This document shows, piece by piece, positions 28,485 to 31,523 of a DNA stretch of 64,000 bases. Position 1 is the stretch's first letter. The number at the start of each line of letters is the position of its first letter. Source of the stretch: Escherichia coli (lineage in GTDB: Bacteria; Pseudomonadota; Gammaproteobacteria; Enterobacterales; Enterobacteriaceae); the NCBI RefSeq assembly GCF_002854065.1, contig NZ_CP024147.1; one strand, given 5' to 3'. The notes under the pieces were generated by a model, which was not told the DNA's origin, searched no databases, and saw nothing but the letters and a program-made list of their open reading frames with translations. Both the position numbers and the translations under genes were made by a program.

Positions 28485-28582
28485 GATGGTGCCCTCAGTG
28501 AGCCAGAGAGTTCAGTGTACGGGAATTCGTTTGCGAGCAGAACTGATAATATTCCTTTGTTCTCTTCGGTAATGACTCCAAC

Positions 28583-29086
28583 TTATTGATAGTGTTTTAT
28601 GTTCAGATAATGCCCGATGACTTTGTCATGCAGCTCCACCGATTTTGAGAACGACAGCGACTTCCGTCCCAGCCGTGCCAGGTGCTGCCTCAGATTCAGG
28701 TTATGCCGCTCAATTCGCTGCGTATATCGCTTGCTGATTACGTGCAGCTTTCCCTTCAGGCGGGATTCATACAGCGGCCAGCCATCCGTCATCCATATCA
28801 CCACGTCAAAGGGTGACAGCAGGCTCATAAGACGCCCCAGCGTCGCCATAGTGCGTTCACCGAATACGTGCGCAACAACCGTCTTCCGGAGCCTGTCATA
28901 CGCGTAAAACAGCCAGCGCTGGCGCGATTTAGCCCCGACGTATCCCCACTGTTCGTCCATTTCCGCGCAGACGATGACGTCACTGCCCGGCTGTATGCGC
29001 GAGGTTACCGACTGCGGCCTGAGTTTTTTAAATGGCGGAAAATCGTGTTGAGGCCAACGCCCATAATGCGGGCGGTTGCCCGGCAT
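28583..29086 (-). CDS. insB: IS1 InsB (transposase C-terminal part, expressed as InsAB' by -1 frameshift)
   Basis: 167 aa ORF matching IS1 InsB. Confidence 0.9.
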
Positions 29087-29280
29087 CCAACGCCATTCAT
29101 GGCCATATCAATGATTTTCTGGTGCGTACCGGGTTGAGAAGCGGTGTAAGTGAACTGCAGTTGCCATGTTTTACGGCAGTGAGAGCAGAGATAGCGCTGA
29201 TGTCCGGCAGTGCTTTTGCCGTTACGCACCACCCCGTCAGTAGCTGAACAGGAGGGACAGCTGATAGAAACAGAAGCCAC
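29005..29280 (-). CDS. insA: IS1 InsA (transposition repressor / transposase N-terminus)
   Basis: 91 aa, [40 protein letters not shown]... Confidence 0.9.
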
Positions 29281-29330
29281 TGGAGCACCTCAAAAACACC
29301 ATCATACACTAAATCAGTAAGTTGGCAGCA

Positions 29331-30029
29331 TCACCCGTTGGTGCTTTCCCAGCTTAATGCCGCTGAGGTGGTTTTTATCATGACTTCTGTTCGGTAGCCT
29401 GCATCTTTGAGTTTTTTTAATGTTTGTAGCGGCGTAGCGGCATTACGAAATGTTCCTTCGACAACAATATTGAGTTTATTGGCTATGGCCCTCTCTATTG
29501 CACGTTCGACCGTTTCGCCGGAAAATTTTGCCGTATGGGTAACAAAATCGTCGCCATAAGTTTGATATATATAATTAAAATCAGGGTGTAGAAATCTGAA
29601 ATCATCACCATTAATAATCATTATATTATTCTTTGTTTCCCTTTTTGCTAATTCGATTAGGGCGGATTTTCCGGCTCCTGGTTGTCCACCTAAAACAAAA
29701 CCAATGGGACTCTGCTGGGATGTGACGTCATGGTTTGTCAGACGCTGCCAAATAGAATCAAAAGACGCTTTATTTTCTGAATGCGCAGTATTATTAAATT
29801 CACGCTGATACTTTTTTCTGACCTGCTGGAGGCGTAACTTTTCCTGTGTAAAATCAACAAGTTCTGCTTGAGTGGAATAAAGATTGTCGCGATAGCTGAC
29901 TAATTGTGATAGCTCATCGTCTGAGTCCTGAACTTGTGAGGAAAAACAACTGTCGACGATATTTGATAAAAACGCGATGCACTGACTGGCGCCGTTTAAA
30001 AGTGCATCCTTTTCCATTAAAGTAGCCAT
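29331..30029 (-). CDS. Zeta-toxin-like P-loop kinase domain protein, reading frame runs into the IS1 end (probably C-terminally truncated)
   Basis: ORF 29331..30035 with likely ATG at 30029 preceded by AGGAG; Walker A GGQPGAGKS, then INGDDFR and VEGTFR motifs; AT-rich; stop codon lies inside IS1 terminal repeat. Confidence 0.55.
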   Translation of the reverse strand: MATLMEKDALLNGASQCIAFLSNIVDSCFSSQVQDSDDELSQLVSYRDNLYSTQAELVDFTQEKLRLQQVRKKYQREFNNTAHSENKASFDSIWQRLTNHDVTSQQSPIGFVLGGQPGAGKSALIELAKRETKNNIMIINGDDFRFLHPDFNYIYQTYGDDFVTHTAKFSGETVERAIERAIANKLNIVVEGTFRNAATPLQTLKKLKDAGYRTEVMIKTTSAALSWESTNG

Positions 30030-30173
30030 TAACACTCCTGTTAAATGATATTTTTCGGTGATTGTAATACTGTTCTACAGGAGTGATTTTGCTTTTCAGA
30101 TATTATTTAATCTATGTTTTCAGTGAGGATGGCGTATAACAATTGGTGAGCGTTATACGCCAGTAGGGAAATA

Positions 30174-31523
30174 TTACTCAAACAAATTAAAATGCAGCTT
30201 CTGCACCACCTGCTCGGCATCTTCGCCGGGTACCAGGAAGCACAGGTTATGGCTGGATGCGCCGTAACAAATCATGCGAATGTTGAACGGTTCCAGTACG
30301 CCGAATACCTCTTTGCCAACGCCGCAGGCTTTTGACAGGTCATTGCCAATCAACGCGACCAGCGCCAGACCTTCTTCCACCTCCACCCGGCACAGTGCGG
30401 AAAGCTCCATCAGCAGAGATTGCGTCAGCAACGTATCGCCAGTGGAGGTTGAACCGGTGGTATCAAGGGTTAATGCCACGCTCACTTCTGACGTGGTGAT
30501 TAAGTCTACCGAAATATTATGCCGCGCGAGGATGCCGAAAACTTCCGCGAGGAAACCGCGAGAATGCAGCATATTCAGGCTGTGCAAAGTGAGCAGAGTC
30601 TGATTGCGACGAAGCGCCAGCGCGCGGAACAGCGGCGGATTTTCAGTTTTATTGCACACCAGCGTACCACCTGCGCGTGGGTCTTTGCTGGAGCCGACAA
30701 AGACCGGGATATCGCTGCGTACTGCGGGTAGCAACGTTGCCGGATGCAGTACTTTTGCACCAAAAGTTGCCATCTCTGCCGCTTCGGCAAACGCGATTTC
30801 ATCAATGCGTTTTGCTGCGGAAACTACGCGTGGATCGGTGGTGTAGATGCCCGGGACGTCGGTCCAGATATCAACACGAGATGCGTGTAAAGCCTCCGCC
30901 AGCAAGGCTGCCGTATAATCGCTGCCTCCACGGCCAAGCGTCGTTGTACGACCTTTATTTTCGCTACCGATAAATCCCTGGGTGATCACTAAGCCTTCAT
31001 TGAGACGTGGGAGCAGCTGCAGCGCGGCCAGTTCCGCCAGCGCGGCTATATCTGGCTCTGCACGACCAAATCGGTCGTTGGTACGCATCACTTTACGTAC
31101 ATCAAACCACTGTGCCTGAACATCGCGTTCGCGCAGGATCTCAACAAACAGCAGGGTCGACATCAGCTCGCCGTGGCTGACCAGCTCATCTGTCAGCGCC
31201 GGAGACGTTGCCAGCGCCGCCGCTTCTGCCAGAACAGTAATGTTCTCCAGCAGACGTTCAATCTCTTCACGGATAACGTTCGGGTAACGCAGACGTTCCA
31301 GAATGGCAAACTGGATGTTGCGAATAGCGTCGAGTTTTTCGAATCGCTCGCCAGGTTCCAGTCCTTCAGCTAAAGCGACCAGCAGATTAGTGATACCAGC
31401 AGAAGCCGAGAGGACAACTAAACGCACGTTGGCATCAGAAAGCACAATATCAGCGCTGCGGTTCATGGCGTCAAAATCAGCTACGCTGGTACCGCCAAAT
31501 TTGGAGACAACAATTTCAGACAT
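30174..31523 (-). CDS. lysC: Lysine-sensitive aspartokinase III
   Basis: 449 aa, MSEIVVSKFGGTSVADFDAMNRSADIVL... Confidence 0.95.
   Translation of the reverse strand: MSEIVVSKFGGTSVADFDAMNRSADIVLSDANVRLVVLSASAGITNLLVALAEGLEPGERFEKLDAIRNIQFAILERLRYPNVIREEIERLLENITVLAEAAALATSPALTDELVSHGELMSTLLFVEILRERDVQAQWFDVRKVMRTNDRFGRAEPDIAALAELAALQLLPRLNEGLVITQGFIGSENKGRTTTLGRGGSDYTAALLAEALHASRVDIWTDVPGIYTTDPRVVSAAKRIDEIAFAEAAEMATFGAKVLHPATLLPAVRSDIPVFVGSSKDPRAGGTLVCNKTENPPLFRALALRRNQTLLTLHSLNMLHSRGFLAEVFGILARHNISVDLITTSEVSVALTLDTTGSTSTGDTLLTQSLLMELSALCRVEVEEGLALVALIGNDLSKACGVGKEVFGVLEPFNIRMICYGASSHNLCFLVPGEDAEQVVQKLHFNLFE

Follow-up and report, generated by a model that had tools for sequence, protein, structure and literature searches.

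The window is a 64,000-nucleotide stretch of an E. coli chromosome in which rluF, yjbD, an IS1 element, a truncated zeta-toxin gene, lysC, the lysine riboswitch and pgi follow one another in that order. The lysC gene (30174..31523, minus strand) encodes lysine-sensitive aspartokinase 3 and ends with a TAA stop codon at 30176-30174. It is separated by a 144-nt spacer from a gene on the same strand (29336..30029, start codon ATG at 30029) that carries the Pfam Zeta_toxin domain (PF06414) and is annotated as a zeta toxin family protein. EzeT, a single-chain epsilon/zeta toxin-antitoxin, is described in reviews as adjoining lysine-sensitive aspartokinase 3 in phylogroup B1 strains, within a 3.4-kb islet. 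Given that the context in the window fits this published description, we identify the zeta-family gene, on the strength of that context, as ezeT. The intact islet lies between lysC and yjbD and consists of ezeT, an RlaP-type nucleotidyltransferase gene and a slipin gene. No gene for a DNA-binding protein is among this gene content, and no transposase, integrase or recombinase gene was found in the islet. In the window, a 768-bp IS1 (28568..29335, minus strand) cuts ezeT at about codon 231 of 309 and adjoins the region upstream of yjbD, and the RlaP-type nucleotidyltransferase and slipin genes are absent. That IS1 directly abuts the region upstream of yjbD indicates that these two genes have been deleted. 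Strain CUWW06, which matches positions 29200-30400 at 100% and has the same IS1-ezeT junction, retains both of them beyond IS1.

Results

A stable stem-loop without a U-tract follows the lysC stop codon

A sequence-only reading of this DNA had described a perfect 10-bp inverted repeat at 30131-30161, GGCGTATAAC-(11 nt)-GTTATACGCC, placed it 13-43 nt past the lysC stop in the short spacer before the zeta-like gene, and doubted that it is an intrinsic terminator because neither strand shows a convincing T-run after it. The geometry was borne out, with the first G of the repeat lying 13 nt past the stop on the minus strand. The full exact inverted repeat is, moreover, one base longer on each side, giving 11 bp (TGGCGTATAAC / GTTATACGCCA, 30130-30140 / 30152-30162). 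In RNA of the lysC sense, the resulting stem-loop (30130..30162, minus strand) has its 5' arm at 30162-30151 and its 3' arm at 30141-30130, and the stem starts 12 nt past the stop codon. It is formed, in order, by a U-A pair, 10 Watson-Crick pairs and a closing G-U pair, for a total of 12 bp including 5 G-C pairs, and it encloses a 9-nt loop (CUCACCAAU) in which position 30144 is A in this window and G in the majority allele. The U-A and G-U pairs at the two ends exist in the lysC sense only, and the stem has 12 pairs there against 11 on the other strand.

The lysC-sense fold of the stem-loop reached -15.7 kcal/mol (z = -7.35 versus dinucleotide shuffles), and the stem-loop was still the dominant local structure when folded in a 181-nt context. 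When the window was shuffled 100 times with its dinucleotide content preserved, the gapped palindrome pattern never appeared. A search for perfect inverted repeats with arms of 10 bp or more and a loop of 3-20 nt gave 28 overlapping hits in the window (about 14 loci) against a mean of 1.2 per shuffle, and this roughly 20-fold excess places the palindrome in a non-random class within the window. The Rfam 15 covariance models gave no match on either strand of 29900-30300 at E-values up to 10. Small plus-strand ORFs crossing the palindrome are 6-13 codons in length and possess no ribosome-binding sites.

With a U-tract being defined as about 5 or more U in the 8 nucleotides immediately 3' of the stem, none was present on either strand. 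The tail following the stem in the lysC sense, UCCUCACU, contains 3 U in 8 without a U run, and the tail following the repeat on the opposite strand, GUAGGGAA, contains 1 U in 8. The sequence upstream of the stem, UAUUUCCCUAC, has no A-tract, and a terminator scan made no call at the palindrome, which falls short of the scan's thresholds. The absence of a U-tract indicates that the stem-loop is not a canonical intrinsic terminator, and the doubt expressed earlier on this point was well placed. In a separate observation, the same scan called a 7-pair hairpin with a U-rich tail (GGTGCAGAAGCTGCATT TTAATTTGTT) within the last lysC codons (30191-30207, minus strand), ending 15 nt before the stop; the total of the calls across the region, this one included, was not above that of shuffles. 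LysC residue 445, which is encoded in the same interval, is Phe here and in most islet-bearing alleles, and Ser in K-12 and in Escherichia sp. MOD1-EC7003.

The hairpin is the first feature of the ezeT islet

Similarity to K-12-type genomes stops exactly at the lysC stop codon, the TAA being the last shared position. The hairpin therefore represents the first feature of the ezeT islet and lies outside the conserved lysC flank. This place in a horizontally exchanged islet had been missed by the sequence-only reading. In K-12-type genomes, the corresponding segment has a 13-bp hairpin of -20.1 kcal/mol followed by U-rich UUGAUUUUCUUG at the same place after the lysC stop, and the two hairpins share no sequence. 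Their equal position after the stop shows that both haplotypes keep a hairpin there, with the U-rich tail being found only in the K-12 type. With regard to the idea of a deletion remnant, BLAST comparison of the K-12 segment with the islet gave a single 13-nt collinear match (E = 0.02). Mention of lysC 3' ends in a K-12 Term-seq supplement (PMC7815308) is confined to ends in the 5' UTR and internal ones.

The hairpin is present in 1433 of 5426 complete E. coli genomes, always in one copy and always at the lysC locus. The search for further copies that the sequence-only reading had proposed thus found the palindrome to be unique in each of these genomes and yielded no others. The remaining 3993 genomes do not contain it, except for one partial hybrid, and a K-12-type segment detectable by megablast takes its place in 3772 genomes. 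Among the 1433 genomes, a 37-nt element hardly varies: 1367 of them have the major allele, with G at loop position 30144, 63 have the allele of the window, with A at that position, and 3 have other alleles. Strains E24377A, O111:H- 11128 and O103:H2 all belong to the major-allele group. Selection need not be the cause, since a recently shared ancestor of the islet could also account for such uniformity within E. coli. In strain WGI31CT, a stem change from G-C to G-U leaves the pair intact in lysC-sense RNA (-15.2 kcal/mol) and would become an A-C mismatch in the antisense RNA, and strain 7_33_46A has one change just outside the stem. A metagenome scan with the conserved 19-mer 3' of the hairpin recovered 23 stretches, and because 22 of them are the E. 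coli major allele and one is unrelated, no diversity was added.

Islet-type sequence after lysC was counted in 1434 genomes, and about 220 genomes have neither the islet nor the K-12 type; these may carry a third, more divergent haplotype 3' of lysC. The sole hybrid among the 5426 genomes is found in the O157:H7 strain TR01 (L005 2975-3029, equivalent to window 30148-30176). Here the 26 nt after the lysC stop, comprising the islet 5' arm and 4 loop nucleotides, are joined to the K-12-type 3' arm and its U-rich tail. TR01 has no islet, the point of joining falls within the loops of both hairpins, and the fold of the hybrid is poor (-11 kcal/mol, z = -1.5). Recombination may have produced this sequence, or it may be an artefact of assembly.

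Pairing is kept in relatives, and the islet has probably been exchanged between lineages

In E. fergusonii the islet is the same and the hairpin identical. The islet is also present in Escherichia sp. MOD1-EC7003, with a spacer 13% diverged from that of E. coli. Two of the 24 stem positions have changed in MOD1-EC7003, both of them in one pair that went from A-U to G-C, and outside the stem 3 of 9 loop positions and 4 of 11 positions in the flank between the stop and the stem have changed. By our own arithmetic, the chance that two random substitutions in 24 stem positions fall on partners and recreate a Watson-Crick pair is about 1 in 69. Across 8 distinct sequences from E. coli, E. fergusonii and MOD1-EC7003, all 12 pairs are kept (100% of cells), with one pair being changed on both sides and one on a single side. 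A covariation shuffle control on these 8 sequences was not significant (61/500). The covariation thus amounts to a compensatory pair in a single lineage plus a G-U change in a single strain, and as evidence it is supportive but thin.

More distant ezeT relatives were uninformative as sources of covariation. The Pseudocitrobacter ezeT, which is 62% identical, is not adjacent to lysC, and no such palindrome was found upstream of it. A Pseudocitrobacter metagenome-assembled genome (L009 2480-2590) has a large imperfect palindrome upstream of its 62%-identical ezeT, where the preceding gene is not lysC, and this palindrome is presumably akin to an ERIC/IRU repeat. Relatives of the EzeT kinase domain with 68-70% identity (L024, L025 and L026, from Logan/ENA contigs) form two-gene epsilon/zeta-like modules on plasmid-like or other contigs. 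In these modules, an 82-aa ORF overlaps the start of a zeta gene of 232-267 aa, and one of them adjoins ParB and PsiA genes, which is a plasmid-like context. An origin of EzeT from fusion of a bicistronic epsilon/zeta operon has been published as an idea, and the two-gene modules are consistent with it.

The history of the islet was followed by comparing E. fergusonii (L052-L056), MOD1-EC7003 (L008) and E. coli (L006/L022). Nucleotide identity between E. coli and E. fergusonii was 84.6% in lysC, 97.2% in the spacer and 93.3% in ezeT, and the rise in identity sets in roughly 250 nt ahead of the lysC stop. The respective values for E. coli against MOD1-EC7003 were 96.0%, 86.8% and 86.7%. Because the islet and lysC identities disagree in this way, they suggest horizontal islet exchange, and the sequences point to movement of the islet between lineages through flanking homologous recombination. 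At the islet edge next to lysC, AATATTTCCCT (L052 3855-3865, equivalent to window 30165-30175) includes the final two bases of the lysC stop, and about 15 nt inside the other edge E. fergusonii has AGGGAAATTTT (L052 7266-7276), an inverted 10/11 match to it. This match may be a vestigial terminal inverted repeat or due to chance, the latter being possible because it is 1 of 33 inverted pairs in 3.6 kb.

The spacer holds a probable weak ezeT promoter and a predicted second hairpin over the ezeT ribosome-binding site

From the hairpin to the ezeT start codon there are 99 nt of untranslated sequence. The 78 nt directly after the stem (30052..30129, minus strand) make up a candidate Rho-loading region that is untranslated, A-rich, C-rich and G-poor (C16, G8), and by its C/G ratio of 2.0 it ranks among the highest 2.6% of the 78-nt windows taken from both strands. 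Nowhere is the spacer better conserved than in the first 50 nt of this region, where MOD1-EC7003 has 2 changes. The G poverty is partly a result of A/T richness, and an A/T-rich spacer with C at only about 20% would make a weak rut candidate. Rho would also have little room to load within 99 nt, unless read-through RNA leaves ezeT untranslated.

The predicted ezeT -10 hexamer (30061..30066, minus strand) is TACAAT in this window. The majority E. coli allele and E. fergusonii have TATAAT instead, as does MOD1-EC7003, whose -10 region is TGTTATAAT with an extended TG. No -35 element was found before this -10. The combination of a conserved -10 and no -35 agrees with the published ezeT promoter, which has a conventional -10 and lacks a -35 (PMC4803016, citing Rocker and Meinhart 2015). 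TACAAT, which differs at 30064 and is common to the window and strain XJ34, is a probable down-mutation of an already weak promoter.

The -10 hexamer lies in the loop of a second hairpin (30033..30085, minus strand), a 9-bp perfect inverted repeat (CACTCCTGT...ACAGGAGTG) in which CACUCCUGU (30085-30077) pairs with ACAGGAGUG (30041-30033), the ezeT ribosome-binding site. Its fold has -14.7 kcal/mol (z = -4.65) in E. coli, and -10.6 kcal/mol in MOD1-EC7003, where there is one C-A mismatch and the inner helix is re-registered. RNA starting from the ezeT promoter misses the 5' arm and has no significant structure over the ribosome-binding site. As modelled, the second hairpin is formable only in transcripts from upstream of the ezeT promoter, i.e. 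in lysC read-through RNA, where it would bury the ribosome-binding site.

Discussion

Rho-dependent transcripts of E. coli have been found to possess precise 3' ends just past stable stem-loops, with no U-rich tails and no upstream A-tracts (PMC6061677). The same class has mild C-over-G enrichment downstream, and its stem-loops shield the RNA from PNPase and RNase II (PMC6061677, Dar and Sorek 2018). The lysC hairpin is similar in being stable, in coming after a gene, in having neither a U-rich tail nor an A-tract and in being followed by more C than G; it thus displays the sequence-level features of the class, with a C-over-G signal that is modest. It differs from the class in its short downstream stretch, as the 99 nt at lysC run into a gene start. 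By analogy, the closest known kind of the lysC hairpin is a protective stem-loop at a Rho-dependent 3' end. A canonical intrinsic terminator, such as that of K-12 lysC, has a hairpin of similar size, energy and distance from the stop, whereas the islet hairpin is without the U-tract that defines that class. REP/BIME elements that stabilise mRNA 3' ends are likewise extragenic palindromes located after a stop, without a U-tract and with a likely exonuclease-barrier role. The lysC hairpin, however, is single-copy in each genome and belongs to no repeated family, and its occurrence at exactly one place per genome in 1433 genomes rules out REP/BIME membership.

Operators of type II toxin-antitoxin systems, exemplified by the omega and PezA sites in epsilon/zeta systems, also place a dyad symmetry upstream of a zeta-family toxin gene. 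By contrast, the islet has no repressor gene, the site is far upstream of the -10, and the observed variation favours RNA pairing. Several further candidates were rejected by eye. Integron attC core sites have one mismatch per core, in an element that is far too short. A PdhR-like half-site, AATTGGT, is present in the loop of the minority allele only and has no second half. The LysR-type T-N11-A motif has the wrong spacing, and omega-repressor heptads (WATCACW) near the promoter are not accompanied by an omega gene.

Taken together, we consider it highly probable that the palindrome functions at the 3' end of lysC as a hairpin in the RNA. It most likely acts as RNA and not as a DNA site, and nothing marks it as a site for protein binding. 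An RNA role is favoured by the compensatory change and by G-U pairing that exists in the lysC sense only, and a 3'-end hairpin fits because the position is that of the K-12 lysC terminator hairpin and the downstream sequence is C-rich and G-poor. Two alternatives had been offered by the sequence-only reading. The factor-dependent terminator, or 3'-end hairpin, fits these three observations, while the protein-binding palindrome is left without support beyond its symmetry. The fuller proposal, that this is the hairpin of a factor-dependent lysC mRNA 3' end and an insulator, to which the transcript would be trimmed and by which it would be protected, and which would replace the usual lysC terminator, we judge to be evenly poised between right and wrong.

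According to this proposal, transcription of lysC on the minus strand would produce the stable 12-bp stem-loop 12 nt past the stop, and RNA polymerase would pass the hairpin and enter the 99-nt C-rich, G-poor untranslated spacer. Rho, or another factor, could then load on the spacer with its excess of C over G, aided by ezeT being untranslated in read-through RNA, and transcription would stop in the spacer or early in ezeT. 3'-to-5' exonucleases would subsequently cut the RNA back to the hairpin, which would both set and stabilise the 3' end of lysC mRNA. The hairpin and the anti-Shine-Dalgarno hairpin could together insulate the toxin gene from the strongly regulated lysC promoter. What the sequences show directly is the structure, its conservation with one compensatory change, its place in the islet, its single copy, the missing U-tract and the C>G composition. 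The mRNA 3' end, the involvement of Rho, the trimming by exonucleases and the insulation of ezeT are what we infer for this locus.

An alternative, which we regard as unlikely, is that lysC and ezeT are largely co-transcribed and that the hairpin is a leaky intercistronic stabiliser, neither terminating transcription nor marking a Rho-dependent end. The hairpin would then block 3' exonucleases after RNase E cleavage in the AU-rich spacer, such that the lysC segment outlives the ezeT segment. The missing U-tract, the AU-rich and single-stranded character of the spacer, the fact that ezeT immediately follows lysC, across the same spacer, in each of the three Escherichia lineages compared, and the reported weakness of the ezeT promoter, with its -10 and no -35, would all suit such an arrangement. 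Protective structures that shape operon stoichiometry are also known in E. coli (PMC5927463). However, with the second hairpin formed, read-through RNA would not be translated into EzeT, which goes against a productive operon, and the C>G bias suits Rho loading.

Hairpins without a U-tract terminate poorly with E. coli RNA polymerase. That the stem-loop is nevertheless a weak but genuine intrinsic terminator, releasing a useful fraction of polymerases despite its poor U-tract, perhaps together with NusA/NusG, seems quite improbable to us. A strong stem directly after the stop, in the same place as the K-12 terminator hairpin, is what one would expect from it, but the composition of the UCCUCACU tail, the lack of an upstream A-tract and the silence of the terminator scan all argue the other way.

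We consider it very improbable that the palindrome is a DNA operator bound by a dimeric transcription factor that controls ezeT at its promoter or acts on lysC from the downstream side, for instance an upstream activator that makes up for the missing -35. The perfect 11-bp dyad has arm centres 21-22 bp apart, which is two helical turns and puts them on about the same helix face. It is positioned upstream of a promoter without a -35, the region between palindrome and -10 is well conserved, and the MOD1-EC7003 change is symmetric in both half-sites. These properties are countered by the palindrome occurring at one place per genome in all 1433 genomes that carry it, and its half-site was not enriched within the window (5 hits with at most 1 mismatch versus 3.5 expected). 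Furthermore, none of the three islet genes (ezeT and those for the RlaP nucleotidyltransferase and slipin) encodes a DNA-binding protein, and the centre of the palindrome is about 92 bp upstream of the predicted ezeT transcription start, where an operator would not usually be positioned. In WGI31CT, the DNA symmetry is lost while the RNA pairing is retained, and the 62%-identical Pseudocitrobacter ezeT does without such a palindrome upstream.

Finally, we give hardly any credence to the hairpin being a relic, without a present role in expression, of how the 3.4-kb islet was inserted directly behind the lysC stop, whether as a piece of the insertion machinery or as a scar, such as a subterminal hairpin left by a decayed transposable element. 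In favour of this, the hairpin begins 12 nt inside the islet edge, the islet history is incongruent with lysC and indicates horizontal exchange, the 11-nt AATATTTCCCT at the left edge has its 10/11 inverted match near the right edge in E. fergusonii, and the junction of the O157:H7 hybrid lies within the loop. Against it, the islet has no transposase or integrase, the palindrome has no second copy at the other islet end, and the compensatory change implies ongoing selection on pairing. The inverted match between the edges is, moreover, both short and imperfect; in E. coli it is weaker, and the region holds 33 such pairs in all.

In a further reading, the hairpin would be deliberately leaky: with a U-tract terminator exchanged for a hairpin that has none, lysC read-through under lysine riboswitch control would carry ezeT RNA, whose translation would be gated by the anti-Shine-Dalgarno hairpin. 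We think this reading highly doubtful; if true, it would tie a UDP-GlcNAc kinase toxin that blocks peptidoglycan synthesis to the diaminopimelate/lysine precursor pathway. Taken alone, one more 3'-UTR hairpin is of little weight. The locus does represent a natural experiment, in which about a quarter of sequenced E. coli end lysC with a U-tract-less hairpin and most others with a U-rich-tailed one. The swap point is the stop codon itself, and in the islet group a toxin gene lies 144 nt downstream. It may therefore serve as a system for asking how an inserted islet gives an upstream housekeeping gene its 3' end and insulates its own toxin gene.
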